From: a virus
Lineage: Duplodnaviria; Caudoviricetes
Strand: one strand, 5' to 3'
Virus record (IMG/VR): IMGVR_UViG_3300036799_000025
Span: 1 to 59,099 of that record
DNA: 59,099 nt
Shown here piece after piece: positions 13,414 through 59,099 of the stretch (its first letter is position 1; the number at the start of each line of letters is the position of its first letter). The notes beneath the pieces are model-generated. The model made no database searches and had not been told where the DNA came from. It was given only the letters and a program-made list of their open reading frames with translations. The position numbers and the translations under genes are program-made.

Positions 13414-13779
13414 TTATCTCTCTCGGAGGGTGATCTGTGCTATGCGCTTGAACCCGAGCGCGTCGCCTTCGTCATCGACATACGACAGCTCATCAATCGT
13501 CACGAGACAGTCGACGCCACCGGCAGGCAGCGCGTCGCCTGTGCAGTGCAGTGAGGCGCTACCGTACGCTGCGGTAAGTAAGGCGGCTGCGTCGGTTTCC
13601 GCCAGTGGTGCGCTAACGAAGGTCCACTCGCGTTTGCGCGGCAGGCCCTGACGACGCAGCGCGCCACTGTAGGTCGAGATCCCCTCAGTCGCTGCGCGCC
13701 GGTCCTGACGTGTGCGCTCGCTCGCGCCGGACGTCTGAATATCAAAGACGCTCACAGCGCCGATCTGCAGGAAAGGCAT
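13414..13779 (-). CDS. Distal tail (Dit)-like protein
   Basis: SGALRRQ..KREWTF..ITLRE pattern. Confidence 0.5.
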   Translation of the reverse strand: MPFLQIGAVSVFDIQTSGASERTRQDRRAATEGISTYSGALRRQGLPRKREWTFVSAPLAETDAAALLTAAYGSASLHCTGDALPAGGVDCLVTIDELSYVDDEGDALGFKRIAQITLRER

Positions 13780-15686
13780 TAGCCGAAGCCCTCGAAGTGA
13801 TACGTCTTTGTCACGACCGCGCTCTGCGCGATGTGTGCGCCGAAGCTATCGAAGGCTTCGACGTAGACCTGCATCTCTGCATTTTGTGTCCCGAGCCCGG
13901 TGATGACCTGACCGTGCTCAGAGTGCGCGATCGTGTCGCTGACTGACGTCGTGAAGCCGTGCGTGCTCCAGCCGCCGCCTGACGTGAAGCGCCAGTACAT
14001 CTTGTACTGCACGCCGCTCGGCATCGAGTGCACGCCGCTCCAGTCGACGTCAAAGTCATTCGTCGGGTCATCGATCACTGAGACAGAAGGATCATCGATC
14101 GTCGGCGACGGGAACGACGTCCCCTCAGGGATCGGCACCTGCAGCAGTGCGCTCGATAGCACGTCATTGCCGACGAGAAAGCCGACGGTGCCATCGCCTG
14201 CGCCAGGATTCGGTCGCGCGAAAGTCCACTGTGAGCCATTCGCGACGAAGACCATCTGCAGCGCGCCTGAGATGCGTGACACGATCGGGTTGAGTGTCGT
14301 CCACGCCCAGGCGACGAGCGGCAGCGTCGAGCTGCCTTCGATCGTGCCGCTGATCGCGAGCGTGATCGACGTCGCATCGATCGCGACGATATCGTACGTC
14401 GGGTGCACCGTGATCGGCGCGCCGCCTGTGCCGCTCAAGAGCCCGAGCCAGCCACGGTACGCGCCTGCAGGTGCGCCCTTGCAGCGCATTGTCGTATAAG
14501 CGACGCCGCCGGTCTCGATCGTGTGCGTATAACTCACGATCGCGAGATCCTGATCTTGATCATACAGCGTGCTGTTGCTGAGAAAGCGAACAAGATCACC
14601 GAGCGTGAGCGGCCAGAATAAGAAGGTGCGCATCTCGTGCTCGAACGGCGGCGAGCCGAGATCGCTGACCGCGCTATCGCCTAACGTCGTCGCTTCTGTC
14701 GCGGTATCGATCTGCGAGTGATCCTTAATCGTGATCTTGCCCCAACGACGACCGAACGCGTTTATGCTCGCGGCATTCGTGCGCGTGATCTGCTGTCGCG
14801 AGCCTGCGGCGCTGTCAGGATAGTCGACGGTGATCGCGTTGCGCACGTCGCTGTCATCGATCGGTGCCGTCGTGATCTCGATATACTCATCAGGGCCGAA
14901 TTGCCAGTCAGGCACTGTCTTCGCGCGATCAGGCACGATGTAGAGCAGCTCAGGATCGGTGTCGCCGTCGTCGCGAAAGAGATAGCGAATATCGCCGCCT
15001 TGCAGCAGCGCGAGCGCATAGATCGCGTCCATGACGCTCGACTGATCGTCTTGATCGAAGGCACCGAGATTAAAGTCAGGCGACGTCGGCACGACGAGCG
15101 TCGCGCCAAACGGCACGGCATTGTCGTCGATGATCTGCTGCACGACTGTCTCGACCGGCGTGCCTGCGCCTGCGTCACTGCCGTACGGGCGCTTCGACTC
15201 AATCCACGTATTCAAGAGCCACGCAGCACGATCGCGCGCGCGCACGGTGATCGTGTTGTCAGGTGACGTCGCAGGGTCGACGCTGTCGATCTTGCCGTCG
15301 AAAATGCGCTTCCACGTGCTGTGCGTGAGCGGCGCGTCGCCATACGCTTCGATATCGACGAGCACGCGAATCTTGCGCGCCGGATTGATCAGCGGCGCGT
15401 ACGTCGTATCAGCTTTGTGATTCGCAGGCGATGCGACGATCTGCGGCGCGAGGCTCATTGCGCCGACGTCGGCGTCGATCGTCTCGCGCACGAGCACGAG
15501 CGACAGCGTCGCTGCGCGATCGTCGATCGTGCTGCCTATCTCTGCGCTGACAAACCAGTCGACGCCATGAAACGCGGTGAGATCGCGCCAGACGTTGTCT
15601 GCGTCGAGTATGAGTACGCGCGCATAGGCTGAGAGATCGCCGCCGAGGCGTGCGCGCTCTGTGCTGTCAGTGACTGTGCGCGTCAC
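13779..15686 (-). CDS. Tail tip/baseplate hub protein with C-terminal Ig/FnIII-like domains
   Basis: IFDGKIDSV..ITVRARD; DDSDVRNAITV; SINAFGRR; LTLGDLV; follows the tape measure gene. Confidence 0.7.
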   Translation of the reverse strand: MTRTVTDSTERARLGGDLSAYARVLILDADNVWRDLTAFHGVDWFVSAEIGSTIDDRAATLSLVLVRETIDADVGAMSLAPQIVASPANHKADTTYAPLINPARKIRVLVDIEAYGDAPLTHSTWKRIFDGKIDSVDPATSPDNTITVRARDRAAWLLNTWIESKRPYGSDAGAGTPVETVVQQIIDDNAVPFGATLVVPTSPDFNLGAFDQDDQSSVMDAIYALALLQGGDIRYLFRDDGDTDPELLYIVPDRAKTVPDWQFGPDEYIEITTAPIDDSDVRNAITVDYPDSAAGSRQQITRTNAASINAFGRRWGKITIKDHSQIDTATEATTLGDSAVSDLGSPPFEHEMRTFLFWPLTLGDLVRFLSNSTLYDQDQDLAIVSYTHTIETGGVAYTTMRCKGAPAGAYRGWLGLLSGTGGAPITVHPTYDIVAIDATSITLAISGTIEGSSTLPLVAWAWTTLNPIVSRISGALQMVFVANGSQWTFARPNPGAGDGTVGFLVGNDVLSSALLQVPIPEGTSFPSPTIDDPSVSVIDDPTNDFDVDWSGVHSMPSGVQYKMYWRFTSGGGWSTHGFTTSVSDTIAHSEHGQVITGLGTQNAEMQVYVEAFDSFGAHIAQSAVVTKTYHFEGFG

Positions 15687-15691
15687 GCTGC

Positions 15692-18148
15692 TTAGCCGAT
15701 GACGCTCGCTGCGTCAGCCGTCGTGCCGGTGCGCGCCATCGCCGTCTGTCGCGCTGCGCGTGAGACTTCGTCGAGAAGCTGCGCGCCGCTCTTCGTCGAG
15801 CCGACGATGACGATCGAGCCAGGCGCGAAGTAATTCGACGCACCTGAGCCTGCGCTGCTATTCGGTCCTGCGCCGACATCAGCGGCATTGACAGGCCGCG
15901 ACGCAAGGAAGATCGCGCGCTGTATGCGAAAGCCTTGCGGGATATTGCTCAGCGCATCAGCGGCGTTCTGCGCTGCGCCTTGCAGGTTATCGAGCGCCTG
16001 TGCGGTGTCGTCCCAACTCATGTTTTCGAGCTGCTTACGCGCCTGCGCGAATTGATCGGCTGCTGCCTTCTGGCCTGCAGCGAAGTTCAGAATACTCTGA
16101 CCGAAATTCGCGATCGCGTGACCGACGCCGCCAAGGCCAGGGATGCGCGCAATCAGGTTGCCGATTGCTTTGATCAGACCACCGACAGCCTGCGCGATCG
16201 CAGCAGCAATACGCGCCATAACTTCGCCGACGAGCGTCGCCGCGACACCGAACGCGCGAAGGATCGGGTAGAGCGCGCGGAAGATTGGCAAGAGCGACGC
16301 GACGAGAACCTGCGCGACGATCGCGATCGGTACGGCGAGTCGATCGAAGAGCGGCGTGAGTGTCCTGATCGCAGGCTCCATCGCGCGCATGAGAATCGCG
16401 ATCGGCCCGAAGCTCGTCATCAGCGTCGCGCTCAACGTGTTGCCGAAGCCGGTCAGTGTGTCGCTGATGCGATCTTTGATCGTCTGCATGATCACCTGCG
16501 TCTGCGTGATCGCGCCGCCTGCCGGTGCGACTGAGAGCGGCGCGCCGCCGAAGCCCATCGTCGGCTGTATCGAGCCCGTCGCGAGCGCCTTCGCGAGCAC
16601 TTCGCGAATGCGTTCCGCTTCCTGAATTGGCACGTTCGCTGCGAATTCTGCTGCGCCAATTCCAGGCGGCAGTGAGAGTCCTTGCGGGATCGTTGGCGTC
16701 TGCGCGACAGCGCCTGCTGAAGGGATGCGCCCGAGGCGTAGCATCTCGACGAGTGGTGACTTTTCGAGCGTTGCCTGCGCGCGCAGCAAGCCTTCGACGA
16801 GCGGGTCGAAGGCCGTCTTCCCTTCGTCGTGCAGCTTTCTGAGCTGCTTCGTGACCTTGTCGTACGCATCGAGCACGGCCTGCGCGAGCGGCACAGTCGC
16901 CTGATGCTGCTTGTTGAGCAGATCATAAATACTGAGCAGGCGCTCGGCTTCGTTCGCAACGTCCTTCGGCAGCTTCGTGTCTTGCCAGATGCGCAGGATA
17001 TTGCCTGCGATCTCTGCGGTATGACGCTGCACGTCCTCGAAGGTTGCACCAGCCTCAGTATTGAATTGGACTTGCTGCTTCATGAGCGCATTGACTTCTT
17101 GCAGCTTCTGATCGAGCGGCGTCATCGTGCGCACCACTTGCGCCATGCTGCCGCCTGCACCTGTACCGAGACTGCCGAAGGCGCTCTGAATATCCTTCGC
17201 TGAGTCGACGACGCGCGCGCCCTGCGCGATGAGCTGCGCCTGCTCTTTCTGCAGACCGATCAGGCCATTGCGCCGCGCATTGAATGCTTCGGCTGTCTCG
17301 TCAGCGGGAACCTGCTGCCCGGTGAGCATGTTGGTCCCGACGCCGCGTCGTGCGAACGGGTCGCCTGAGAAGGCAAACTGCTTTTGTTGCGCTGCGCGCA
17401 TGATGTCATACGAGCGCGCAATATCGATCGCGGTCTCTTGAAACTTGCGCCGCGCAGCTTCTGCCGCTTTCTCCTGACGCTGAAAGGCTTCGACGATGAC
17501 GTCCGTCGCGGCGAGCAGGCCTGCGACGATGAGCCCTGCAGGCGGGTCGAATGTGACGGCTGCCATGATGCCCATCGAGCGCAGCACGCGACGCCATGCG
17601 CCTTCGCCAGCAGCAGCGCCGCGCGTCATCGCGTCGAAGGCAAAGAGCACGCCGACGCTCACGCTCGCCATGCGTCGACTGAGTCCTGCACCGGCCTGCG
17701 CGACTTGCTCAGTCTCGCGCGTGACAGCGGCTGCGTCGAGAAACTGCCCGCCCTGCCCCGGCTTCAGCACGCCTTGCGTCGTGAGCGAGCGCAGGCCGGT
17801 CTGTAGACCAGTCGCGTACGCATTCGCTGCCTTGCGCCCTGCGAGTGCAGCCGCCTGATCGCTCATCAGGCCGACGCTGACAGCCTGCTCGATCTCTGCC
17901 TTACGATTCTCGAAGCTCACGGTGAGCTGACGCACGAGCTGATTGACTGCGCTCGCCGCATTCTTCGTGATCACCTGCCCGCCTGAGCGCACGCGCAGGC
18001 CGCTCTCGACTGCGCCAGAGATCTTGTCTGCGATCTGTAGTGCGTTGTCTGAGAAGCGCGTCATCTCAGCCGTCGTGCGCGCGAGCCCGCTCGACACCGC
18101 TGAGGCATCGACGCCCATTTTCACATACAGCTCGCGAATCGTTGCCAC
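15692..18148 (-). CDS. Tape measure protein
   Basis: MATIRELYVKMGVD start, long A/G-rich helical protein after the chaperone genes. Confidence 0.9.
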   Translation of the reverse strand: MATIRELYVKMGVDASAVSSGLARTTAEMTRFSDNALQIADKISGAVESGLRVRSGGQVITKNAASAVNQLVRQLTVSFENRKAEIEQAVSVGLMSDQAAALAGRKAANAYATGLQTGLRSLTTQGVLKPGQGGQFLDAAAVTRETEQVAQAGAGLSRRMASVSVGVLFAFDAMTRGAAAGEGAWRRVLRSMGIMAAVTFDPPAGLIVAGLLAATDVIVEAFQRQEKAAEAARRKFQETAIDIARSYDIMRAAQQKQFAFSGDPFARRGVGTNMLTGQQVPADETAEAFNARRNGLIGLQKEQAQLIAQGARVVDSAKDIQSAFGSLGTGAGGSMAQVVRTMTPLDQKLQEVNALMKQQVQFNTEAGATFEDVQRHTAEIAGNILRIWQDTKLPKDVANEAERLLSIYDLLNKQHQATVPLAQAVLDAYDKVTKQLRKLHDEGKTAFDPLVEGLLRAQATLEKSPLVEMLRLGRIPSAGAVAQTPTIPQGLSLPPGIGAAEFAANVPIQEAERIREVLAKALATGSIQPTMGFGGAPLSVAPAGGAITQTQVIMQTIKDRISDTLTGFGNTLSATLMTSFGPIAILMRAMEPAIRTLTPLFDRLAVPIAIVAQVLVASLLPIFRALYPILRAFGVAATLVGEVMARIAAAIAQAVGGLIKAIGNLIARIPGLGGVGHAIANFGQSILNFAAGQKAAADQFAQARKQLENMSWDDTAQALDNLQGAAQNAADALSNIPQGFRIQRAIFLASRPVNAADVGAGPNSSAGSGASNYFAPGSIVIVGSTKSGAQLLDEVSRAARQTAMARTGTTADAASVIG

Positions 18149-18170: not shown

Positions 18171-18443
18171 CTATCGATGACGATGCCACGTTGGTGCTCG
18201 TGTGCGCGGGTTCTCGCGCTCTGCTGCTGCTTGTCGCTCATCTTGCTGTCGTCGCGCTTCGTACTCGTCGTGCTGCAGACCGAATTCTGCGATTAGCTCT
18301 GCAATCTGCTGCGACCCCGCAGCGGCGACGCCGTCGGCTGCCTGCTGATCGATGCGCCTGAGTAACTCGTCAGGCAGGCAGCCTACTTTCTCCACGGCGA
18401 GCCAGATCAGGAAGCGTCTGAGGGGTCGCTCTCTGAGTTTCCC
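18171..18443 (-). CDS. Tail assembly chaperone gpGT extension (-1 frameshift product)
   Basis: -1 frame open from the slippery site: GKLRERPLRRFLIWLAVEKVGCLPDELL. Confidence 0.75.
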   Translation of the reverse strand, partial: GKLRERPLRRFLIWLAVEKVGCLPDELLRRIDQQAADGVAAAGSQQIAELIAEFGLQHDEYEARRQQDERQAAAERENPRTRAPTWHRHR

Positions 18444-18829
18444 TTGAGATCCTCAATATCTTCCTTCGTGATCTTCGCGAGATGACAGGCGACTTCGTAC
18501 ACACGATCGAGTGCTGCTGCGCTCTTCTTGCCGAGCCGCTCGACGTCGCGCAGCGTGAAGAGTAGCTCGCCGTTTTTGTCGACCATCGTGCGCGAGGCGA
18601 GCTTCGCTCTGACGTTGCTCATATCGACGCGCGTTGTCTTGCCGACGCCAGAGAGCAGTGACTGCTCGTACGCATCGCGCTCAGTGCCGGAGAGCGCCTT
18701 CACGCGGACAGTCCCGCCCCATTCCGGCACGTCGACGTCTTTGTGCTGCTGATCCTGCGCGTTGAGAATCTCATCGCGCCCGAGTAGTGCGCCGTTGCTG
18801 CTCGCGTGCTGTGCTGCGGTGCTTTCCAT
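18407..18829 (-). CDS. Tail assembly chaperone (gpG-like)
   Basis: VDVPEWGGTVRVKALSGTERDAYE. Confidence 0.85.
   Translation of the reverse strand: MESTAAQHASSNGALLGRDEILNAQDQQHKDVDVPEWGGTVRVKALSGTERDAYEQSLLSGVGKTTRVDMSNVRAKLASRTMVDKNGELLFTLRDVERLGKKSAAALDRVYEVACHLAKITKEDIEDLKGNSESDPSDAS
18437..18443 (-). other. Programmed -1 frameshift slippery site G GGA AAC
   Basis: XXXYYYZ near the end of the chaperone gene, as in lambda G/T. Confidence 0.8.
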
Positions 18830-18907: not shown

Positions 18908-19324
18908 CTAAATCGACAGGCCAGTGCCAACGTCGACAGGGTCTGTCAGGACGTCACACTCATACGAGACGGGCTGCAGCGTCGACGGGTCAGCCGTGAC
19001 GTCGTACGTCTTTGCATGAATGCGCACGAGATACTCTTCGCCGTTAGTGCCGTCAGGCAGCAGCCGCACCTTCACGGCGATCTCTGTCTTCTCTGCGAGA
19101 CGCAGACGCACCTGCCCTGCGTCGTCGCCGTTCAGAAAGCCTTGCAGCGAGACGGCACGCGTCGCACGCGCGTAGGAGCGCTGCGCCGGGTTCTGAAAGA
19201 CCGCGTACGTCGTGCGATCGCGCTGCGTCTGCACCTGCACGCGATTGAGATCAGCGATCTCAATGAACGTACCGGCGACTGCTGTCTCGACGAGAATCAG
19301 CAGCTCTTCGCCTGCGAAAACCAT
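18908..19324 (-). CDS. Tail tube protein paralogue B
   Basis: Alignable along its length with 19324-19746; upstream of the chaperone. Confidence 0.7.
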   Translation of the reverse strand: MVFAGEELLILVETAVAGTFIEIADLNRVQVQTQRDRTTYAVFQNPAQRSYARATRAVSLQGFLNGDDAGQVRLRLAEKTEIAVKVRLLPDGTNGEEYLVRIHAKTYDVTADPSTLQPVSYECDVLTDPVDVGTGLSI

Positions 19325-19746
19325 TAGACAAGGATGCCGCTCCCGATCGGCGTCTCGTCATTCGTAGCTTCGCAATCGAAGGTGACCGTTTGCAGCGACG
19401 CTTCGTCTGCCGTCGCTTCGCCGCCGTCCGTGCCGACGAGAATCGCGACTTGAAAGCCGTTCACGCCATCAGGCAGCACGCGGATATTGATCTCGGCGTT
19501 ACTGTCTGACGCGTCACGCAGCGCCTGCTGGCCTGCGTCGGTATCGTTGAAATACCCTGACAGCGTGAACGTCTTCGCGCGCTCGCCGGTCGTCTCGTGC
19601 GCGGGCCCGCCGAAGACTGGAATACGATTCGCCGGTCGCGTATTGCTCGACGAGTAGCGATCGAGATCAGCGACCGTGATGAATGTACCGGGGGCGTCAG
19701 GATCTTCGACCTGCACGAGCAGATCTTCGCCAACAAAGACACTCAT
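19324..19746 (-). CDS. Tail tube protein paralogue A
   Basis: GEDLLVQV..TFTLSGYFNDTDAGQQALRDA. Confidence 0.75.
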   Translation of the reverse strand: MSVFVGEDLLVQVEDPDAPGTFITVADLDRYSSSNTRPANRIPVFGGPAHETTGERAKTFTLSGYFNDTDAGQQALRDASDSNAEINIRVLPDGVNGFQVAILVGTDGGEATADEASLQTVTFDCEATNDETPIGSGILV

Positions 19747-19750
19747 GATG

Positions 19751-20002
19751 CTACCCTCGCCGCTTAGGTCTGATCACTTCGACGGTCGTACGCGGGAACA
19801 CGCGCCCGTCGATCTTCACGCCGCTCTCGACACGCGTACGCGTGTCGCGTGCACTCTGTGGCGTCGCGATCGCGCTGACAGACGGCGCTGACGCAGTCTG
19901 CGCCTGCTGCTGCTGCTCGCTGCTCGTCGTGCGCGCCTGCTTGGGCTCGTGATGACTCAGCGGGTGCGGCTTCTCGGTGCTACGTCGCTTGCTCGTCGCC
20001 AT
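19751..20002 (-). CDS. Hypothetical low-complexity protein
   Basis: AGGAG RBS, MATSKRR start. Confidence 0.5.
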   Translation of the reverse strand: MATSKRRSTEKPHPLSHHEPKQARTTSSEQQQQAQTASAPSVSAIATPQSARDTRTRVESGVKIDGRVFPRTTVEVIRPKRRG

Positions 20003-20264
20003 GACTCTGCTCCTGTGTGCGTCGTCTGCTGCCAAAGGTCGCCGGTCGCTTCGGCTGCGCTGCCTCTTGCGCTGCCTTCCTGCGCTGCTCTGCCATCTCG
20101 CGCGCGCTGTCGAGCTGCGCACGCAGAAGCTGCACCGTCCTGATCGCGCTCTTACAGCTCTCGATCGTCGCACTGAGCTGCTGCTCGACAACGTCGAGTG
20201 ACGTCACGCGCGTCGCGAGCTGCTGATCGTCGAGCTGCTGATCGTGCTGTGGCTCGTTACTCAT
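19980..20264 (-). CDS. Hypothetical coiled-coil protein
   Basis: Coupled to the tail terminator gene. Confidence 0.5.
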   Translation of the reverse strand: MSNEPQHDQQLDDQQLATRVTSLDVVEQQLSATIESCKSAIRTVQLLRAQLDSAREMAEQRRKAAQEAAQPKRPATFGSRRRTQEQSHGDEQAT

Positions 20265-20710
20265 CGCTGATAGGACCGAGGCGTGATGAGAACCTGCGTA
20301 TGTTGCGCTCTGACGTTCACGTCAGGCATATCGATGACTAGCTCGACGACGCACGTGACGACGTCGTGATCAGGCAGTGCGACCGTCTTGCCGTGAAAGA
20401 GGCGACGCAGATGCCTGTAGATCGCGAGCCCCTGCATGTTGCCGAATTCTGTGCGATCGGTCCAGATATCAGGACGCACCTGACCGAGCACGCCGTACTT
20501 GTCGAAGGTGCTGATCCCGTTGTCAGCTTCCTGTGTGAGCCCGAGCGTGACGTACGGGTACGGCGTCCCTTGCGGCGCTTCGCTCGCAAAGATGCGCGCC
20601 TGATCGCCGACGCCGAGCAGTGCGCTGAGCTGCGCGTCAGCCGCGCAGGCGTCGACGAAGTAGACCTGAAAGTCACTCGCGGCGCTGAGCGCATCGCCTT
20701 TGATGCTCAT
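20261..20710 (-). CDS. Tail terminator (DUF3168-like)
   Basis: APQGTPYPYVTLG..DIW. Confidence 0.8.
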   Translation of the reverse strand: MSIKGDALSAASDFQVYFVDACAADAQLSALLGVGDQARIFASEAPQGTPYPYVTLGLTQEADNGISTFDKYGVLGQVRPDIWTDRTEFGNMQGLAIYRHLRRLFHGKTVALPDHDVVTCVVELVIDMPDVNVRAQHTQVLITPRSYQR

Positions 20711-21120
20711 GCGCGACCTGCTCTGCGATCGATCGCCGCGCTGATCAAGTCACTGAGATCTTGCTCGAATTGCGGCGCGACTTCGTCATACGCAGGCCAG
20801 ATCGTCGGCTGTGCAGGCATGCGCGACGTGCCTAGCTCGACAAACGGCGGGTAAAACTGCAGACCTGCTGACTCGAAGTCTTCCGCTTCCCACCCGATCG
20901 AGACAGCGTAGCCGCGCTCAGTCACGCGCTTCTTGATGTGATCGCGCATGAAGCCCGTATCGACAGGCGAGATGCCTTGCGCGACTTCGACCATCGCGTC
21001 GCCTGCACTCTCGACCAGTCGCAGCGCTTCGCTCTGAATCTCTTCGTCTGCCGCGTAGAAATTCGCGACAAGCGCCGAGAGCTGCGACGTATCGAAGGTG
21101 AGAAAAGAGCTGCGCGCCAT
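20707..21120 (-). CDS. HK97 gp10-like tail completion protein
   Basis: SPVDTGFMRDHI; FVELGTSRMPAQP. Confidence 0.85.
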   Translation of the reverse strand: MARSSFLTFDTSQLSALVANFYAADEEIQSEALRLVESAGDAMVEVAQGISPVDTGFMRDHIKKRVTERGYAVSIGWEAEDFESAGLQFYPPFVELGTSRMPAQPTIWPAYDEVAPQFEQDLSDLISAAIDRRAGRA

Positions 21121-21128
21121 GCTCGACG

Positions 21129-21437
21129 TCAGTCCTTCGCGCTGTGCTTCGCTTCCGCTTTGCGCGCAGCGATCACGGCAGGATGCTCTTCGACGCGCGA
21201 GTGACTCACGAGCACGTACGTCTCAGACTCGTCGAGCGTCGACGCGTCATCGTCAGGATGCAGAAAGCGGTGCATGCTGTTGTCCGTGAGCGACCACTCG
21301 TGCGCGACGTCGCCGCGATCAGGGAAGATCTGCGCGGCTGCGTCGTGCGCGACGTCGCCGATCGTCGCGCCTGCCTTTGCGCTGATCTCGCGCGTCGGGT
21401 GATTCCAGTCGCCCGCCTGTCTCACTGTGATCTTCAT
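21129..21437 (-). CDS. Hypothetical protein, possible beta-grasp (ubiquitin-like) fold
   Basis: MKITV..TIGDV..WSL..LHPD..ETYVLV. Confidence 0.4.
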   Translation of the reverse strand: MKITVRQAGDWNHPTREISAKAGATIGDVAHDAAAQIFPDRGDVAHEWSLTDNSMHRFLHPDDDASTLDESETYVLVSHSRVEEHPAVIAARKAEAKHSAKD

Positions 21438-21442
21438 AGCAC

Positions 21443-23317
21443 TCACCATCCCTTCGCGATGATCTTGTCGTGAATGATACCTGCGATCACGCCCATTCCG
21501 GCAGGCGTTTGGTGCAGGCCGTCAGTGAAGTATGTCACATCGTTCGTTGCGAGACGCGCGTCGAGATCTGTGCGCGCGACAGCGAAGTTCGATGAATGCG
21601 CCGTCTCGAAGGCAAGCAGCCCGTTGAGCCATTCGGTGCGGAACGGGTCAACGATCGGGAAGAACGGCGCGCAGACGACGACGCGCTTATTATCGGCGAC
21701 CGCCGCCGCAAACTCGATCGCGAGCTGCGCGAGCGCGACGTCTGCACTCGCGACGGTGTTGCCGAAGCCGTTGCCTGTGCCAGGACCGTTCACGTCATTG
21801 ACGTCGAGTAAGTAGACGTGAATGTCAGGTCCGGCGCGATGCGTATCGGCGTCGTTCGCTGCGCGCTGACGCCAAAACTCAGGCGTGTACACACGCGCAG
21901 CGATATTCGCGCGATCGTGCCAACTATCGCCCTCGATACCACGGTTCTGTGTGTGATAGACGCCTGGCGCTGTCGCGTCGAGCAGCGCCTGGAGCTGCAC
22001 GCTGATCGGATCCGTATTGAAATTCGATGCGCCGTTACCCCACATGCGCGAGTCGCCGTCGCAGGTGACGCCCTTCGCGCCTGCCGTATTCGTCGTCACG
22101 CAGCCGAGGCGGGTGCCGAAGCGCTCTAGTGCTGCCATATGCACGCGCGAGAGCGACTGATCGAGCAGCGCATCGAGCTTGATCAGCGCTGCGCCGCGCA
22201 GGATGCCTTCGGTGACTGCGCCGCCGAGAATGATCTGATACGTGCCTGCAATCGGCGGCGTGTACTCGTTCAGGCCTGACGCAAACATGAGCACGCGCTC
22301 ATTCCCTGGCGACTCCGCGCTATGAAACGGGAACGAACCCTCGAAGCCAGACGCTGCGATCACCGGCTTCTTGATGCTGATGACGCGCGTGCGGGCCGCG
22401 ACGCCTGCCACGTTCGGCATGACACGCATGCCTGAAGGGTAGCCTCCTGAGTACGCGTGCGTCGCATCAGCCTGCAGCAGCAGATCAAACGTCGCATGAC
22501 CGAATGCGCCAATGAGCCCGACGCCGCGCAGGCCATCGCTGTGCACGATACGCACAGCGTACGAGCCTTCACCTGCATTGAACCCGCCCCATACGACGAG
22601 CGCGAGCGCCTGCCCGTTGAGACTGTAGCGCGCGTCGAGCGCTGTGCCGAGACGTGTCTGCGTTGGCTGCCCGAGCGTGAAGAGCGCCTGCTTGTTTGCG
22701 GCGTCCCATCCTGGCTTGTGTGAGCCGAGCGAGCCGTCTGCGAGCGCGCCGATCATCGGCAGGCCAACGCCTGCACCGCGCGCATCGTCGACGCTATCGA
22801 TCTGCGTCGTGCCGTTGACGTGCACTGAGCTGACCTTCGAGAGATCCCACACGCCGACGAGGTTCTCATCGCCGAAGGTGTTCTGCAGATCGAGCACGCT
22901 GCCGTCTTGCGACAGATCGATCTTCGTCGGGCGCACCGCGCTGCGCACTTCGTACGAGATCGTCTGCAGCTCACCAGGCGCAGGCGTGCCGTCGTGTGTG
23001 ATCGTCGCGACGCGCACCGTCGCCTGATTGAAGATCGTCGAGCTGCCCTCTTCAGACCACCGAATGCGGATATCCGTATTCGTGCGCTCTGCAGCGAGCA
23101 GTGCGGCCTGCCCAGGATCTGCATAGTTCAGCAGACCGGCGAGCGTGAAGGTGAAGTCGGTCGCTGACGCCGCGCGATACGTCTTTCTGAAAACGCGCGT
23201 ACGCGTGATCGTCACGTTATTCGACTTCGTGACGCGAGTCAGATCAGCGCACTCTGTAAAGACGTTCGGCGCTGTCTCGACTTCGATCAGAAATAGCCCG
23301 CCACCGAGTACCGTCAT
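21443..23317 (-). CDS. Tail tube domain fused to a beta-sandwich and an SGNH/GDSL hydrolase
   Basis: N-terminal ~125 aa match the tube paralogues; C-terminal GDS, NRGIEG, DVND, DGLH blocks. Confidence 0.8.
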   Translation of the reverse strand: MTVLGGGLFLIEVETAPNVFTECADLTRVTKSNNVTITRTRVFRKTYRAASATDFTFTLAGLLNYADPGQAALLAAERTNTDIRIRWSEEGSSTIFNQATVRVATITHDGTPAPGELQTISYEVRSAVRPTKIDLSQDGSVLDLQNTFGDENLVGVWDLSKVSSVHVNGTTQIDSVDDARGAGVGLPMIGALADGSLGSHKPGWDAANKQALFTLGQPTQTRLGTALDARYSLNGQALALVVWGGFNAGEGSYAVRIVHSDGLRGVGLIGAFGHATFDLLLQADATHAYSGGYPSGMRVMPNVAGVAARTRVISIKKPVIAASGFEGSFPFHSAESPGNERVLMFASGLNEYTPPIAGTYQIILGGAVTEGILRGAALIKLDALLDQSLSRVHMAALERFGTRLGCVTTNTAGAKGVTCDGDSRMWGNGASNFNTDPISVQLQALLDATAPGVYHTQNRGIEGDSWHDRANIAARVYTPEFWRQRAANDADTHRAGPDIHVYLLDVNDVNGPGTGNGFGNTVASADVALAQLAIEFAAAVADNKRVVVCAPFFPIVDPFRTEWLNGLLAFETAHSSNFAVARTDLDARLATNDVTYFTDGLHQTPAGMGVIAGIIHDKIIAKGW

Positions 23318-23335: not shown

Positions 23336-23767
23336 TCACAGTGTCGCGGTGACCGCGCTCGGCACGCACAGCGCGCGTCGCTGCGTCTGATAACTTCGCG
23401 TCGGCTCGACGCCGATCACGTCGAGCTGCTTCGTCCAAGTACTGCCGTGCGTCTCGCCATCGATGACGAGCTTCGTTCTGATCGTGAGCTGCTGCTCGCT
23501 CACGTCGTCGACAGCGAAGGCGACGACCGAGATCGGCTGCTGCTCGAATTGTTGCGCATTGAGTCGTGCGAGCGTGTCCGCAGTCGCCTGCTGCACGCGA
23601 CAGCTCACGGCAGGCACGCTCGCGACGTCAGGATACACGTAGCTCGTCACGCCGCCAGGACCACGCGTCAGCACAGGCGTGAGCACGCGCGCGAGATGCG
23701 GCAAGCTCGCATCGCTGAGCTGCCTGAGATCAGCGAGATCGCTCGACGAGAGAATCGGCTCGCTCAT
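23336..23767 (-). CDS. Head closure/stopper protein
   Basis: Position and RGPGG..VSCRV motif. Confidence 0.6.
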   Translation of the reverse strand: MSEPILSSSDLADLRQLSDASLPHLARVLTPVLTRGPGGVTSYVYPDVASVPAVSCRVQQATADTLARLNAQQFEQQPISVVAFAVDDVSEQQLTIRTKLVIDGETHGSTWTKQLDVIGVEPTRSYQTQRRALCVPSAVTATL

Positions 23768-23774
23768 CGTCGCG

Positions 23775-24191
23775 TCACCAGACTGGCCTGATCGGCTGCG
23801 CGCCGCCGTGCGCGACCTTCGTTGCTTCGACGTCGACGATCAGGCCTGCTTCGCTCAACGCCGTGTCGTACGCGAGCAGCGCCCCGTCGCGCTTATTCTT
23901 GAATGCTTCGATCTGTGACGCGAGATGCGACGCGGACGCTTCGCCTGCGATCGACTTCGTCGCATGCGCGCGACTCATCAGCAGATAGATCGCGTCATAC
24001 GCGCGATAGTAGGCCCACGAGCGCGCCGCGTCGTCCTGCAGCGCTGCAGTGTCAATCGCTGCAGTGCGACTGTAGCCGTCGTCGAGATACGCCTGCAGGC
24101 GTAGCGAGAGCGCTGCTGCGTCGTCAGTCGGGAAAAAGGCGTTCTCGATCTCGCCGACTGGCGCGATCAGATCCTCAGCGAGATACAGCAT
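23775..24191 (-). CDS. Head-tail adaptor
   Basis: Helical ~140-aa protein between capsid and neck genes. Confidence 0.6.
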   Translation of the reverse strand: MLYLAEDLIAPVGEIENAFFPTDDAAALSLRLQAYLDDGYSRTAAIDTAALQDDAARSWAYYRAYDAIYLLMSRAHATKSIAGEASASHLASQIEAFKNKRDGALLAYDTALSEAGLIVDVEATKVAHGGAQPIRPVW

Positions 24192-24585: not shown

Positions 24586-25422
24586 TTACTCGTCGTCGCT
24601 GCTGTCGCTCGCGCTCGCGCGCTTCGACGCTGAGCGCTTCGTGCCACGCTTCGCGCTGCTGCGCTTCGAGCCGGAGCGCTTCGACGCTGAGCGCTTCCTC
24701 GCAGGGCCGGTCTTCTCTTCTTTGATCGGCTCGCCGCCTTCGGTCTGATACGCGCCGCCGTGCGCCTCAGACGACTCGTGCGTCTCGCTGTCGCCTGCGA
24801 AGCGCTTGAATGCGCTCGCTGCCTCTTCGCCTTCGCCACCCTTGCCACGCGCGGCGCGCTCGTCGTCAGCGATGCCCTGCGCGTGCTCTGAGATGCGCAG
24901 TGCGACGTCGTTCGGGTTCTGCCCCTGATCGCGTGCGATCGAGTCCCGCTCGACTTCTGCGCGGTGCACGTCCTGTGTGAGCTGCGTGCGCTGTGCAGGC
25001 GAGAAGCTGCGCTGTCCTGGCAGCGCATGGTGCTGCGTGTCTTCGTCGAGCAGCGGCGAGTCGCCGACGACGGCATTGAGACGACCGCCCTGTCGATCTG
25101 CGCCCGTCGCGCGACCTGCGAGCTGCGTGCGCTCGATCGGCTCGACGTCAAACTCTTCGCCTTTCGCGTACGAGACGTCAGGCGCAGGCATCGCGTGCAC
25201 GTGACGCGTCCCAAACTCGGCGAGCTGCTCGATCGTGTCCTTCAGCGGCACGCCCGTTCCATCCGTCGCGATGTACTCCGGTCGCAGTGAGAGCGTGTAC
25301 GCCACGCGTGGCGGCACGTCGACGAGCCCCGGCCCGTAGGTCACGACGCCGCCGTCTTCGTCTCTGATCGTGAGATCGCGGATCATGTTGACCCGCACTG
25401 TCTTTTGCGTCTGCTCAGGCAT
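24586..25422 (-). CDS. Capsid-adjacent protein with a KRS-repeat basic tail
   Basis: YGPGLVDVP N-terminal domain; RKRSASKRSGSKRSSAKRGTKRSASKR. Confidence 0.65.
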   Translation of the reverse strand: MPEQTQKTVRVNMIRDLTIRDEDGGVVTYGPGLVDVPPRVAYTLSLRPEYIATDGTGVPLKDTIEQLAEFGTRHVHAMPAPDVSYAKGEEFDVEPIERTQLAGRATGADRQGGRLNAVVGDSPLLDEDTQHHALPGQRSFSPAQRTQLTQDVHRAEVERDSIARDQGQNPNDVALRISEHAQGIADDERAARGKGGEGEEAASAFKRFAGDSETHESSEAHGGAYQTEGGEPIKEEKTGPARKRSASKRSGSKRSSAKRGTKRSASKRASASDSSDDE

Positions 25423-25579: not shown

Positions 25580-26680
25580 TTACGCAGTCGACGCGACTGC
25601 GATCTTGTCCGGTGCTTCGATGACTGGCATGCCGTTCATCGCGCCACGACCGCGTAGCTCCCACGGCGCGGCTTCCGGCGTGTAGAGCTGCGCCCAACGT
25701 CCTGGCCTGCCGCCGCCTTCGACCGTCGGCCCGAGATGCGTGTAGCCGATCGGGTTGTCGCGGTTCGGGTCGTCCGTCGAGCCTTCGCCGACGCGGTAGC
25801 CAGTGCGATTATTGTTGCCAATCGCGACGAGCTTGTTGCGCTGACAGAACGGCACAATGATCGTCGACGTCGGGTCGGCAGGGTTCAGGATCTCGCCCTC
25901 GCGATCGTACTTCACGATCTGCACGATATCAGCGACGTCATTCGTGAAGGCACCTGTCGCAGGCACGATCTTTCTGAACGTCAAGCCGCCTGCGTCTTCC
26001 TGCACCGCGACCGCGTTATTCGCCGGGTTGTAGCGAATGCGATCGACCGTGTCAGGATGCGCGACGATCGCGCGCAGGTTGCCGCGCAGACGCTGTCTGA
26101 GCAGTACGATATCGGCCCAAAACTTCGACGTCGTGCCGTCATAGACGTCTGTGCCGGTGCGCTGCGCAAGGATGTTCGCAGCAGGCACGCCGTACGAGAC
26201 GACGAGACTCTTGCCGTTGTACGTCCAATTGATCGCGCCGGTCGTGAGTGCTTGACCGCGCAGCCATTCCATCGAGTCGATCAGCGGCTGCACGACGAGC
26301 TTCTGCAGGAAGTTCAGCGCTTCGTTCATGATGATCTCGTTTGTCGGCGTGCCGCTCACCTGAAGCTGCATGAGCATTTGCTGAAGCTGCCTGACAACCT
26401 CTTCCTTCAGCGGCACTTCGATCGCGATCTTCGCGAGCTGCTCTAGGAACGTCGAGACGCTGACGTAACCTCCGGGCGGGTACGGCGAGTCCATGCCGAC
26501 GAGTCCTGCCATCGTCGCGTGCACGGTCATGTTACCGCTATTCGCGATGTACGACCACACTGGCGTCTCTGGGAGAATTGCTTCCCACAGATAGTCTCCG
26601 GGCGGTCGTGTCGCGTTTGCGATGCGGAACGCAGCATTCGGCGTGAGCTGCGCAAGCACCGCCGCAAAATTGAGGAACAT
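25580..26680 (-). CDS. Major capsid protein (lambda gpE-like)
   Basis: EWLRGQALTTGAI..VSYGVP; follows decoration and scaffold genes. Confidence 0.85.
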   Translation of the reverse strand: MFLNFAAVLAQLTPNAAFRIANATRPPGDYLWEAILPETPVWSYIANSGNMTVHATMAGLVGMDSPYPPGGYVSVSTFLEQLAKIAIEVPLKEEVVRQLQQMLMQLQVSGTPTNEIIMNEALNFLQKLVVQPLIDSMEWLRGQALTTGAINWTYNGKSLVVSYGVPAANILAQRTGTDVYDGTTSKFWADIVLLRQRLRGNLRAIVAHPDTVDRIRYNPANNAVAVQEDAGGLTFRKIVPATGAFTNDVADIVQIVKYDREGEILNPADPTSTIIVPFCQRNKLVAIGNNNRTGYRVGEGSTDDPNRDNPIGYTHLGPTVEGGGRPGRWAQLYTPEAAPWELRGRGAMNGMPVIEAPDKIAVASTA

Positions 26681-32431: not shown

Positions 32432-32460
32432 ATGATACTGCGAGCGCTGCGCCTACGCTA
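32432..32460 (-). promoter_or_regulatory. Promoter P7 (second class)
   Basis: TAGCGT-N17-TATCAT; predicted start falls at the ATG at 32425. Confidence 0.5.
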
Positions 32461-34102
32461 CGCGACGCTGCGTGCGCGTGCCTGGGTTCGTCGACGTCGG
32501 CACTCTGAGCACGACCTTATTGACTGCGCCTGAGCACGAGTCGACGACGTCGTCGTGCGCACCGTTCGGGAAGTCAGCCAGCTCGCGCCTGACTGCGCCG
32601 TTCCACGTTGCTTTGAGCATGCGCACCATGCTGCTCTCGACCATCGACGCGAAGGGGATAGCGCGCGCGAGCTTATTGCCTGACGACGCGCCGACGCGAT
32701 CGATGTAGACGCGCTGCGCGCCCTGCGCGAGCAGGATCTTCCTGAACATGATGCCTGCATCGACGCCGCCGTCGCCGCCGCCTGATTCGCCCCACGTCGT
32801 CAGGCGTGCGCCGAATCGAGCACGATCGCGCATCTCGCAGCGCTTGATCTTCTCATCGCGCTCGCCCGGGCCCCACTGCCCGCGCTCGACGTCGAGCAGA
32901 TAGATCATCTCGCTCGCGACGTCAAAGCCGACGAGCGCGCCGACTGAGTAGTCGCCGTCGTTCTCTGTCGCGGCCTTGTCCCAATACCTGACGACGCGGA
33001 GCACGCTCCACGGCACGTCGACGTCAGCGACGAGCGTGAGATGCTCGATCTTAAAGAGCAGGCCTGACTTCGGGCGCGGTCGCTGCTGATAGAGCGCAGC
33101 CCAATAGTACGGCCCGACGCGGCGCATGATCTTCAGCAAGCGCTCACGCGGGTAGCGCTCCGGCGCGAGCGCTTCGCCAGGCTGACGCCAGTCAGGTTCG
33201 ACGGTGCACGTCGGCGGCCAGAGCGGCCTGCCGTCTGTCTCTTCGACCTTCGCGATCTCTTCAGGCGACGACTTCAGCGCCTCGAAGTTCACGATATGCC
33301 AGCGCTCAGGCTCTGCGTCTTCAGCGCCTTCGTGCTCTGCTTCCTGCCACTCTTCGCTCAGCAGCCAGCCTGCTAAGTCGTCTTCGTTCCAGCGCTGCTG
33401 AATGATGACGATCGCGGCGTCAGGCTCAGCGCGCGTGAAGAATGTCGAGCGATACCACTCCTTGTGACCGGCGCGTACACGATCTGACGCTGCCTCTTCC
33501 GCATTCTTGACCGGATCATCGATCAGGCCGAGATGAAAGCCTTTGCCTAAGATCGCGCCGCCGACGCCTGCAGCCCACAGACCGCCGCCGCGTCCTGTCT
33601 CCCACTGCTTGACCGCGCCGACTGACTGACGCTCGTGCGCTGTGTAGTAGTAGGTGCGCGCTGCGCGTGAGAGCGTGTGCGCTAGCTCGGCCGTGTGCGC
33701 GCAGAGCCCGACCCAGCGCTCAGGATGACGATAGAGATAGTACGCAGGAAAGAGACGCGAGACGGCTTCTGACTTGCCGTGCCGAGGCGGCGCGAAGATG
33801 AGCACACGCTTCTTGAGCCCATCAGCGACCTGCTGCAGTACGCCTGCGAGCACGAGCGCGTAGCGATACCAGCGATAGCGCATGCCGCTGACGCGATCGA
33901 CGAAGTCTTTGTACGCGATCGGTGCAGCGCCGTTCGCGGTGTCGTCGATGAGCTGATACCAACGCGCCTGCTCAGCAGGCGTCATGAAGCTCAGCGCGAG
34001 CTGCTGCTCAGGCGTCAGCGGTCGTATCGAGCCGACGACCTGCGCTGCGTCTTCGATCTGCTCGCCGTCCCTGACGTCGCGAGCTGCTGCTGCGTCGCTC
34101 AT
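32453..34102 (-). CDS. terL: Terminase large subunit
   Basis: PPRHGKS Walker A, LIDDP Walker B, YWDKA and HDDVVD nuclease motifs. Confidence 0.95.
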   Translation of the reverse strand: MSDAAAARDVRDGEQIEDAAQVVGSIRPLTPEQQLALSFMTPAEQARWYQLIDDTANGAAPIAYKDFVDRVSGMRYRWYRYALVLAGVLQQVADGLKKRVLIFAPPRHGKSEAVSRLFPAYYLYRHPERWVGLCAHTAELAHTLSRAARTYYYTAHERQSVGAVKQWETGRGGGLWAAGVGGAILGKGFHLGLIDDPVKNAEEAASDRVRAGHKEWYRSTFFTRAEPDAAIVIIQQRWNEDDLAGWLLSEEWQEAEHEGAEDAEPERWHIVNFEALKSSPEEIAKVEETDGRPLWPPTCTVEPDWRQPGEALAPERYPRERLLKIMRRVGPYYWAALYQQRPRPKSGLLFKIEHLTLVADVDVPWSVLRVVRYWDKAATENDGDYSVGALVGFDVASEMIYLLDVERGQWGPGERDEKIKRCEMRDRARFGARLTTWGESGGGDGGVDAGIMFRKILLAQGAQRVYIDRVGASSGNKLARAIPFASMVESSMVRMLKATWNGAVRRELADFPNGAHDDVVDSCSGAVNKVVLRVPTSTNPGTRTQRRVA

Positions 34103-59043: not shown

Positions 59044-59099
59044 CGTCGATCTCCTGACTGAGTGAGCTGTCGCTCGCGCTGCCGTCGTGCAGCGTCGAG
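58973..59099. repeat. Terminal direct repeat, copy 2
   Basis: Identical to 1-127. Confidence 0.95.

Follow-up and report, generated by a model that had tools for sequence, protein, structure and literature searches.

Tube-fold proteins with additional functions or specialised positions are known from several systems. In the T6SS, 'evolved' Hcp proteins with C-terminal extension toxins (Hcp-ET) combine a tube-fold protomer with a functional domain. In contractile tails, the tube-fold paralogues gp19, gp48 and gp54 of T4, as well as Afp1, Afp5 and Afp7, form dedicated rings at defined axial positions; these specialised rings lie near the baseplate and have no enzyme attached. For siphophages, no precedent for tube paralogues in dedicated rings was found in the literature. 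In lambda gpV, T5 pb6 and YSD1, a tube domain is joined to a C-terminal domain that protrudes outside the tube, these decorations being described as approximately 10 kDa in size, present on every subunit and non-enzymatic (PMC8718954). In SPP1 gp17.1* (FN3) and lactococcal TpeX (CBM), some of the protomers have a C-terminal extension that faces outward and interacts with glycans; it is appended to an identical tube sequence by ribosomal frameshifting (PMC8718954, PMC6669499). Finally, the neck passage structure (NPS) of lactococcal siphophages of the 936 and P335 groups is an optional virion accessory, which was found in 73 of 113 phages of the 936 group. It comprises a near-identical N-terminal ring-forming anchor of about 130-180 residues, followed by one of seven groups of exchangeable carbohydrate-binding, beta-helix or esterase-CBM-like modules. 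Its anchor, a predicted BppU-like beta-sandwich, would assemble into an 18-mer that encircles the connector and is followed by a trimeric coiled coil; the protein has been suggested to surround the head-tail junction as a collar (PMC6669499).

The 624-aa protein described here is a variant of these decorated tube or neck-passage proteins; what is new is an anchor with interchangeable cargo, together with the occurrence of the same cargo on other anchors. It is encoded in the window, by which we mean the whole 59,099-nt stretch analysed (IMGVR_UViG_3300036799_000025), from an uncultured phage with a long tail, where the preliminary description had proposed three tail-tube paralogues, one of them carrying an SGNH esterase. 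All three tube-type ORFs are present in the ORF list of the window, on the minus strand (Table 1), and their similarity is far beyond chance. Tube A and tube B share 36% identity over 136 aa (E 5e-31), and the 624-aa fusion is 32% identical to tube A over its residues 1-133 and 33% identical to tube B over its residues 3-133 (E 4e-14 in both cases). When tube A was used as a query against the whole record, exactly these three places were found and none besides. Tube A is the most acidic and most conserved of the three, with a net charge of -16, a pI of 4.05 and 23 of 25 family-signature columns kept; the corresponding values are -6, 4.71 and 20 of 25 for tube B, and 0, 6.6 and 14 of 25 for the N-domain of the fusion. 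The charges of the two short paralogues are exactly those that had been counted by hand in the preliminary description.

Table 1. Features of the tail region of the window
Feature	Coordinates	Strand	Description
Tube A	19324..19746	-	140 aa; probable major tail tube protein
Tube B	18908..19324	-	138 aa; tandem paralogue of tube A
624-aa fusion, residues 1-135	22913..23317	-	tube-fold anchor domain
624-aa fusion, residues 136-400	22118..22912	-	beta-rich middle domain of cargo
624-aa fusion, residues 401-624 and stop codon	21443..22117	-	putative SGNH/GDSL-type esterase domain
Neck1 / HK97-gp10-like tail completion protein	20707..21120	-	phrog_5 E 1.2e-16; TIGR01725 E 2.2e-11
gp17-type tail completion / tail terminator protein	20261..20710	-	PF11367 E 4.9e-10; phrog_176 tail terminator E 0.0071
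Tail assembly chaperone	18407..18829	-	adjoins tube B downstream; phrog_344 E 4.9e-27
818-aa protein	15692..18148	-	tape-measure position, by gene order and size

The AF2 model of tube A (pLDDT 94.1) exhibits the beta-sandwich, the single flanking helix and the long beta2-beta3 hairpin of the tube fold. Foldseek returned 61 PDB matches at E<=0.001 for this model. The best is the monocin tube MttP (8qhs, E 4e-9, TMq 0.78), and the tubes of lambda (gpV), GTA, SPP1, R4C and 80alpha come next; the matches listed are all tail tubes or tube-like proteins, from phages, from tailocins or from contractile injection systems. The structural search with the N-domain of the fusion also found tube-fold matches, in agreement with the fold that had been assigned to it. 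Tube A matched PF06199 with an E-value of 7e-5 (23.3 bits, below the cut-off of 23.8), and neither tube B nor the fusion matched any Pfam family in a whole-protein search at E<=0.01. PF06199 was matched by 23 of the 96 family members at E<=0.01 (best E 9.9e-12). With NF047353 (tube_lmo2291), the fusion and tube A both remained under the cut-off of 27, with scores of 19.6 and 16.5. MttP, to which NF047353 corresponds, and the RcGTA tube (6tba/6toa) are the nearest structural neighbours; sequence identity to them is only 10-18%, and the HMM scores are under the curated cut-offs. The tube protein is probably of the minimal PF06199 / monocin-GTA type.

Tubes A and B occupy the usual tube-gene position, directly upstream of the chaperone and the 818-aa protein, which matched no family in Pfam or PHROG and is 58% identical to a 777-aa counterpart in a related fragment, G001. 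The three-gene layout is conserved in this one fragment, with the order fusion, Neck1, terminator, small ORF, tube A, tube B, chaperone and TMP. A more distant and simpler syntenic relative, L010, shows the order p138, Neck1, terminator, one tube gene and chaperone, and has neither a fusion nor a tube B. Sequence comparison suggests that the fusion and tube B are accessory, and that tube B arose from tube A by a tandem duplication specific to this lineage.

One may ask whether the rings consist of alternating A and B subunits (A3B3), as an unfused version of the tandem tubes of T5 pb6 and P74-26. The two genes are adjacent and of equal size, and the clades to which they belong are sisters in the tree (support 94/97). 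The start codon of B overlaps the stop codon of A (TAATG), but this overlap is not conserved in G001, where the ORF coordinates leave a 14-nt gap. The A-B pairing does recur in G001; between these same two phages, however, B is only 48% identical, against 76% for A, and such a faster divergence is unexpected for equal ring partners. In addition, L010 makes do with a single tube gene for its tail. Heteromeric rings do exist in tube-fold proteins, since the Hcp2-Hcp3 heterohexamer 9vnd was among our structural matches; as here, paralogous tube proteins coexist in Hcp, and they form mixed rings in this one solved case, according to its title. A tandem-duplicated, fused tube protein has reportedly been found in P74-26. 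Such a protein is also known in T5 (PMC5717097, PMC8718954). On balance, we consider alternating rings somewhat unlikely, and tube B may instead form a minor specialised ring.

In contrast to tubes A and B, the fusion is not in the usual tube-gene position: it is a separate gene, located 1.7 kb upstream of tube A and upstream of Neck1 and the terminator. It had been described as lying among the neck genes, which holds for its downstream side, where Neck1 and the terminator were matched. On its upstream side, the ORFs at 23336-23767 and 23775-24191 matched no family in Pfam, PHROG or the TIGR/NF-type profiles, and it is gene order only that suggests that these two are neck genes.

The N-domain of the fusion aligns end to end with tubes A and B, with no gap at the beta2-beta3 hairpin, which is a main inter-ring contact of tail tubes (PMC8718954). 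By this alignment it is a complete, full-length tube protomer, and it should therefore assemble in line with the tube lattice via the normal tube contacts. The core signature residues F43, G61, D67, G69, Q70 and G91 are kept. The D-G-x-N-G loop is changed, the conserved C-terminal V-G-x-G tail is lost, and the strong negative charge of tube A is absent, changes which could signify altered polymerisation or none at all. In the tree, the N-domain is a member of a separate, long-lived clade of anchor paralogues, which comprises 8 rows on a long stem (support 100/100) and stands apart from the A and B clades. The fusions may or may not be of independent origin: constraining all 13 fusion-type rows, a group named after the tree had been seen, to a single clade cost 32.5 lnL units, but with a p-AU of 0.096. 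A frameshift-extended major tail protein of the gp17.1*/TpeX type was ruled out by the separate gene, the 32-33% identity and the distinct clade.

A protomer that is full-length and keeps its core residues could also co-polymerise sparsely with A and B along the whole tube, which would result in scattered esterases rather than a collar. It would thereby achieve with its own gene what frameshifting does for gp17.1* and TpeX. Mixed tubes have precedents, with gp17.1 and gp17.1* present at 3:1 (PMC8718954) and TpeX CBMs distributed along the tube of 936 phages (PMC6669499). Among the homologues, P0105 (tube+FN3, 226 aa) resembles gp17.1*, and phrog_1407 ('major tail protein') covers residues 12-200 of P0035, a member of the anchor clade (E 5.8e-11). 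Nevertheless, mixed rings require that the lateral interfaces be preserved, and the fusion is only about one-third identical to A and B and differs from them in the loop and the C-terminal tail. Its gene is upstream of the tail-completion genes rather than adjoining the tube genes, and nothing was seen in the data that would hold its incorporation sparse. We regard this arrangement as unlikely. The fusion further differs from gp17.1* and TpeX in its location in the neck module and in its 490-aa enzyme-bearing cargo.

Comparison of the homologues indicates that the tube-like N-domain is a conserved anchor whose C-terminal cargo is swapped between phages, a point that is new relative to the preliminary description. 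P0004, P0005, P0006 and P0007 are 67-76% identical to the fusion in residues 1-135 and have unrelated C-termini, P0007 with a poly-proline linker at the junction; in the G001 fusion, too, only residues 1-135 are conserved (68%). Conversely, P0002 has the same cargo, with 71% identity over residues 400-624, on an anchor from another clade that is 39% identical to the N-domain of the fusion. In P0003, the N-terminus that precedes the cargo gave no match to the tube domain at E<=10, the sole such case among 14 tested, which shows that a tube anchor is not required for the cargo. Among the 150 profile matches listed, at least ten pair an N-terminal tube domain with an extension, in proteins of 369-807 aa. 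No cultured relative was found among the homologues searched for.

That the same cargo can be carried by a non-tube N-terminus, that the fusion is dispensable in the family, as L010 shows, and that its N-domain has a charge of 0 rather than -16, without the negative charge that is usual for tube proteins, and has lost the conserved C-terminal motif would all be compatible with a fusion outside the DNA conduit, in which the tube-like domain serves as a hexamerisation scaffold or docking module only. On this reading, the enzyme would act as a free ring that is released at lysis, for example by stripping debris of receptors, or would dock at another site, for instance on the baseplate-proximal ring. 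However, the anchor is held at 67-76% across phages while its cargo changes completely, and the fusion stays within the structural operon in both genomes seen, as one would expect if the anchor served as an interface to other virion proteins. We hold this reading to be improbable; the baseplate position fits poorly with a gene upstream of the terminator.

The fusion and the NPS resemble each other in having a conserved N-terminal anchor with exchangeable C-terminal modules. They differ in the nature of the anchor: that of the fusion is a paralogue of the tube protein, and should for this reason sit in line with the tail rather than around it. No BppU entry was present among the 50 structural matches listed, which is in itself no exclusion. 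Moreover, no long coiled coil is evident in the sequence of the fusion, and its cargo has an apparently catalytic SGNH domain.

The explanation that we consider fairly probable is that a tube paralogue serves as the virion anchor of an exchangeable esterase module, including its placement in a head-proximal collar. In the phage, the minimal tail-tube protein would have been triplicated. Of the copies, tube A, which is conserved and acidic, would build the bulk of the tube, and tube B would share rings with A or form a specialised ring. The 624-aa protein would derive from an older, separate paralogue lineage, of which residues 1-135 would have become the anchor, with the C-terminal 490 residues tethered outside the tube. 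We favour one head-proximal hexameric ring, which would constitute a collar of six esterases. The two arguments for this position are gene order, as the gene is located between the head- and tail-completion genes, and steric size, as a cargo this large could not be accommodated on each 4-nm ring. Phages would exchange the cargo while keeping the anchor. The comparisons made here show the paralogy, the tube fold, the intact catalytic motifs, the swapping of cargo, the synteny with one relative and the lack of the fusion in a simpler one; we infer that the fusion is built into the virion, as well as its ring position and stoichiometry, its substrate and what tube B does. A combination of obligate A3B3 rings with one in-line head-proximal ring of the DNA conduit, bearing six horizontally exchangeable glycan enzymes on tethers, that is, three dedicated tube protomers, appears distinctly improbable. 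If true, the A3B3 rings would represent an unfused intermediate toward the pseudo-hexameric tubes that T5 and P74-26 build from fused subunits, the ring of the third paralogue would be the siphophage counterpart of the T6SS 'evolved Hcp', and siphophages would have a new, cassette-like route to depolymerising or deacetylating activities that leaves the tail tip untouched.

With regard to the cargo, a beta-rich middle region is followed by a putative SGNH-like esterase domain with intact catalytic blocks, as had been proposed. The motifs G421-D422-S423, G463, N507-D508 and D599-G-L-H602 are present and do not vary between the 624-aa protein, P0002 and P0003. We assigned them to block I (GDS), block II (G), block III (N) and block V (DxxH) by reading the sequence with the help of the PF00657 alignment, which spans the full length. 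This alignment covers positions 5-205 of the 208 in the profile, with a sub-threshold score (E 0.021, 15.4 bits, cut-off 23.6), and no PDB match was found by sequence for the domain. P0004, which has a homologous N-domain and middle part, matches PF13472 with an E-value of 3.4e-16 (60.7 bits, cut-off 32.9). Further leads come from the ESM-Atlas, where the feature scores of the domain to GDSL clusters reach 0.95, and all ten of the best family-bearing feature matches share the family or clan of the best match, a GDSL-like lipase cluster. The structures nearest to the ESM-Atlas model (pTM 0.62) are SGNH hydrolases, with TM values of 0.44-0.45, which is likewise a lead. Taken together, this suggests that residues 401-624 form a putative SGNH/GDSL-type esterase, in which S423 would be the nucleophile, G463 and N507 would form the oxyanion hole, and D599 and H602 would be the acid-base pair. 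During adsorption, the enzyme would bind a glycan on the host surface or remove O-acetyl groups from it.

The full-length AF2 model of the fusion, built on a 7-sequence alignment, has a mean pLDDT of 36, with values of 21-35 in residues 136-400, and this middle region matched no Pfam family even at E<=10. Its ESM-Atlas feature neighbours include LamG_3+GDSL architectures (0.94, 0.88 and 0.87), a lead according to which it may be a ConA/LamG-like lectin. The middle domain begins at a conserved junction, QDGSV, which is common to P0002, P0003 and P0004.

Three paralogous tail-tube domains were found in this uncultured long-tailed phage, and the arrangement is most aptly characterised as a tube-paralogue anchor bearing exchangeable enzyme cargo, accompanied by a tandem tube duplication. 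The two short proteins, tube A and tube B, share 36% identity over 136 residues (E 5e-31). Both are also related to the N-terminal part of a 624-aa fusion protein: tube A with 32% identity over residues 1-133 of the latter (E 4e-14) and tube B with 33% identity (E 4e-14). When tube A was used as a query against the whole record, exactly three places were returned, which are the three paralogues. Given these values, the three-way similarity claimed in the preliminary description is real, and the net charges it gave for A (-16) and B (-6) were both reproduced; the N-terminal domain of the 624-aa protein, referred to here as the anchor, is neutral. A profile of the three paralogues retrieved 201 relatives at E<=0.001 from 1.84 billion representative proteins, including 100 at E<=1e-10, and these relatives are mostly 130-150 aa long.

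The predicted fold of tube A (pLDDT 94.1, from a 96-sequence alignment of relatives) gave 61 Foldseek matches in the PDB at E<=0.001, those listed being tail tubes or tube-like proteins from phages, tailocins and contractile injection systems. At the top stood the monocin tube MttP (8qhs; E 4e-9, TMq 0.78), followed by phage YDC107, 80alpha, R4C, lambda gpV, RcGTA and SPP1. Support from sequence profiles is weaker than this structural support. PF06199 was matched at E<=0.01 by 23 of 96 family members (best 9.9e-12), tube A itself falling 0.5 bit below the gathering score, and the NCBIfam monocin tube model gave sub-threshold matches to A and to the 624-aa protein. In PDB sequence searches, the three-paralogue profile returned only de novo designed Ig proteins, which were taken as chance matches, and the 96-sequence tube-family profile returned nothing at E<=1. 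Since the fold and Foldseek results of tube A can be combined with the paralogy and profile results, the N-terminal domain of the fusion does not appear to lack a tube fold.

The record of 59,099 bp (GC ~62%) is rated 100% complete, and nearly all of its genes are carried on the minus strand. Its prefix and suffix form an exact 127-bp terminal repeat; assembler k-mer overlaps typically have this length when the genome is circular or permuted, and the repeat does not necessarily mark the physical ends. Among 50,697 cultured phage records, no match was found for the 624-aa protein, for 15 kb of the DNA or for tube A; the large terminase showed at best 38% identity, to Synechococcus siphophages S-CRES and S-CBS2.

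Structural genes in order of transcription, followed by other features of the record
Feature	Position	Strand	Evidence or remark
Terminase	32453-34102		
666-aa ORF			Portal position
Major capsid protein	25580-26680		phrog_29, E 1.1e-11
Three ORFs (278, 138 and 143 aa)	Between capsid gene and 624-aa gene		No family match
624-aa gene (fusion)	21443-23317	-	
106-aa ORF	21129-21449	-	Start overlaps stop of 624-aa gene; no family match
Neck1/HK97-gp10-like	20707-21120		phrog_5, E 1.2e-16; TIGR01725, E 2.2e-11
gp17-type tail completion/terminator	20261-20710		PF11367, E 4.9e-10
94-aa ORF	Between terminator and tube A		
Tube A	19324-19746	-	
Tube B	18908-19324	-	
Tail assembly chaperone	18407-18829	-	phrog_344, E 4.9e-27
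74-aa ORF	18171-18395	-	Directly after tail assembly chaperone
818-aa protein			Tape-measure position
635-aa tail protein	13779-15686	-	Directly after tape-measure position; phrog_1887 'tail protein', E 2.7e-8
278-aa ORF	24586-25422	-	Directly after major capsid gene
Glucosyltransferase, adjoining ParB-like nuclease-domain protein	43277-44140 and 44143-44862	-	beta-glucosyl-HMC-alpha-glucosyltransferase PHROG phrog_842, E 2.4e-40; phrog_723, E 3.9e-30
Terminal repeat	1-127 and 58973-59099		

With regard to the tail genes, the 74-aa ORF occupies the usual siphophage place of the frameshift-extended chaperone product. The 635-aa protein gave, besides its PHROG match, only ESM Atlas leads, to FN3 and Sipho_Gp37-type tail proteins, and no distal tail protein (Dit) was recognised in this phage. 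An assignment of the fusion itself as the distal tail protein was rejected on gene order only. A fusion of A and B by -1 frameshifting was also discarded, as no slippery heptamer was visible ahead of the A stop codon when the sequence was read by eye.

The relationships among the three domains were examined in a tree of 52 rows chosen from the listed matches, which excluded P0068 and every long repeat protein, and for which fusion proteins were trimmed to the initial ~136 residues. Clades were recovered for the A orthologues (support 100/96), for the B orthologues (100/97) and for A and B together (94/97). The anchor domains of the window type formed a clade of eight rows on a long stem (100/100), the related database proteins P0002, P0029, P0033 and P0061 a separate one (100/97), and P0027 grouped with two stand-alone tube proteins (100/95). 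The groups were identical in an earlier quick tree of 98 rows. On this topology, A and B are a lineage-specific tandem duplication, and the anchor domain is not a recent copy of either. In the free tree, the fusion lineages were located at three spots, as might result from independent origins. Constraining all 13 fusion-type rows to one clade cost 32.5 log-likelihood units, with a p-AU of 0.096 that does not reject one clade; because of this value, and because the group was named after the tree had been seen, independent origins are not established and we make no claim of them.

Genomic context beyond the window was provided by one close relative, the 22.7-kb fragment G001, and by the more distant loci L010-L016; metagenome scans, and viral scans with the fusion proteins P0007 and P0005, yielded no further relatives with genomic context. 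G001 encodes a fusion of 746 aa, Neck1, the terminator, a small ORF, tube A, tube B, the chaperone, the tape measure and a 632-aa tail protein, so that its three paralogues stand in the same order as in the window. The 106-aa ORF has no counterpart in G001, where Neck1 directly follows the fusion gene. Identity to the window was 76% for both tube A and Neck1, 74% for the 635-aa tail protein, 68% for the anchor domain (residues 1-135 only), 65% for the chaperone, 62.5% for the terminator, 58% for the tape measure and 48% for tube B. In G001, tube B seems to be truncated (profile positions 3-115, in a 197-aa ORF overlapping the chaperone gene); this is not a real variant, but an assembly gap, caused by a run of N inside the gene at ~8650-8960 of its locus, L009. 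In the syntenic relative L010, the 138-aa ORF, Neck1, the terminator, the chaperone and the 635-aa protein all have homologues (35% identity for the last), and the tube is represented by a single gene; a fusion gene and a second tube gene are both absent. L011-L016 likewise contain one tube match each within the available sequence. Tube B and the fusion have therefore been added to a single-tube design that already works.

What is mainly new relative to the earlier account is that the anchor is combined with swappable cargo, that is, the residues after the anchor domain. P0004 (583 aa), P0005 (609 aa), P0006 (746 aa) and P0007 (749 aa) share 67-76% identity with the window protein in residues 1-135, and beyond these residues their sequences are unrelated to it. 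The C-terminal ends of P0006 and P0007 contain sub-threshold Big_2-like segments, and an eight-proline run joins anchor to cargo in P0007. Conversely, P0002 carries the cargo of the window protein (71% identity over residues 400-624) behind an N-domain that is only 39% identical to the window anchor and belongs to a different clade. P0003 (625 aa) has the same middle domain and SGNH cargo (72% identity over residues 400-624), and its N-terminus of ~135 residues matched neither the tube profile, even at E<=10, nor any Pfam or PHROG family. Of 14 proteins tested, P0003 alone lacked a tube-profile match, so that an anchor of a different kind also bears this cargo. The motif QDGSV stands at the junction where the cargo starts in the window protein, P0002, P0003 and P0004. 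An N-terminal tube domain with a long extension, which could serve as a rule for metagenome mining, was found in 10 among the 150 family matches listed (total length 369-807 aa); one further listed match, P0105 (226 aa), combines a tube domain with FN3. For P0004 and P0007, which belong to the anchor clade and differ in their cargos, the longest contig listed is 60,725 bp in each case, and one phage might encode two such anchor-cargo proteins.

The C-terminal region of the window protein (residues 401-624) contains four catalytic blocks of the SGNH type: GDS (421-423), G463, N507-D508 and D599-G-L-H602. The motifs described as intact in the preliminary description are indeed so, and are invariant in the close homologues P0002 and P0003; the Pfam match is only sub-threshold, PF00657 aligning nearly full length to the C-terminus with an E of 0.021, under the gathering score. 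P0004, which has the N-domain and part of the middle region in common with the window protein, shows a clear PF13472 match (E 3.4e-16) and aligns with the window protein around the GDS block (E 0.006). The exact 624-aa protein is present in the ESM Atlas (model pTM 0.62), where by features it adjoins GDSL/SGNH clusters with a score of 0.95, the ten best family-bearing feature matches all belonging to the same family or clan as the top one; structure search gave TM values of 0.44-0.45 to GDSL/SGNH clusters. An AF2 model of the full protein had a mean pLDDT of 36 with a 7-sequence alignment, and no fold reading of residues 136-624 was drawn from it. In PDB sequence searches, the C-terminal 245 aa gave one irrelevant match (E 0.08) and a full-length three-homologue profile gave nothing at E<=10. 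Since the AF2 model is unusable in this region and the PDB sequence searches were empty, we regard residues 401-624 as likely, but not proven, to be an SGNH domain. The middle region (136-400) had no family match; a ConA/LamG-like lectin, suggested by ESM Atlas neighbours, is only a lead.

The alignment of the anchor with A and B runs from residue 1 to ~130 and is gap-free in the beta2-beta3 hairpin. According to one review, the inter-ring contacts of siphophage tubes involve the region of this hairpin and the N- and C-termini (PMC8718954). The family signature, defined as 25 columns conserved in at least 60% of 93 other family members, is retained at 23 columns in tube A, 20 in tube B and 14 in the anchor. 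The losses of the anchor are concentrated in the L-x-D-G-x-N-G loop and in the C-terminal V-G-x-G tail, at which the linker to the cargo starts. We infer that the anchor domain still assembles as a tube protomer, with one set of contacts altered. As the bore of a tube paralogue is that of the tube, the protein cannot encircle the tube, and would have to lie in line with it if present in the virion. A cargo of 490 residues on all six subunits of every 4-nm ring looks too bulky, by estimate rather than computation, and the protein would thus have to be either scarce along the tube or restricted to a single ring. The position of the gene between head-completion and tail-completion genes favours a single head-proximal ring, interspersed placement along the tube being the main rival. 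This ring, which would form a collar of six esterases, is a possibility that we put forward tentatively. During adsorption, acetylated surface polysaccharide would be the target of the predicted esterase, as is understood for SGNH domains on other phage virion proteins. With regard to the two short proteins, B diverges much faster than A, and for this reason we incline to a reading in which A supplies most of the tube and B is a partner that is specialised or evolves fast, with mixed A3B3 rings as the alternative. The observation in the preliminary description is upheld, and its interpretation is supported in part; virion location, stoichiometry and activity stand as predictions.

Tailspikes and tail-tip fibres are where the host-glycan enzymes of phages are usually looked for. 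A tube-paralogue anchor in the neck module with swapped cargo suggests, if it is in the virion, a second, unrecognised site of enzyme display on siphophage particles. Among tube-fold proteins, the Hcp-ET fusions of type VI secretion are a parallel. Another is the Hcp2-Hcp3 heterohexamer (PDB 9vnd, by its title). The closest architectural analogues are the frameshift-extended tube proteins SPP1 gp17.1* and TpeX, in which the extension is on the tube gene's own sequence, whereas the window fusion is a separate paralogue gene (PMC8718954, PMC6669499). The closest functional analogue is the lactococcal neck passage structure, which combines a nearly invariant N-terminal ring-forming anchor with exchangeable C-termini that are directed at carbohydrates and fall into seven groups; related phages may have or lack this structure, for which a collar has been proposed (PMC6669499). 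Its anchor is described there as BppU-like and followed by a coiled coil, in contrast to the tube paralogue of the window. In the literature covered, which excluded most subscription journals, no account of separate tube paralogues in a siphophage was found, nor any of a tube fusion with an SGNH, GDSL or esterase domain. JBD30's 'two major tail proteins' were rejected as a paralogue precedent, as the phrase means neighbouring subunits. The tandem A/B pair is a natural test case for the origin of heteromeric or pseudo-hexameric tubes, and an anchor that tolerates unrelated cargos of 230-670 residues could serve as a display scaffold for engineering, if it is in the virion.

Two further observations concern other parts of the record. 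The last ~60 residues of the 278-aa ORF are extremely rich in Lys, Arg and Ser, and searches of Pfam, PHROGs and NCBIfam gave no match for the ORF, which could encode a decoration protein or an internal protein that binds DNA. The glucosyltransferase and the adjoining ParB-like protein may constitute a DNA hypermodification module.
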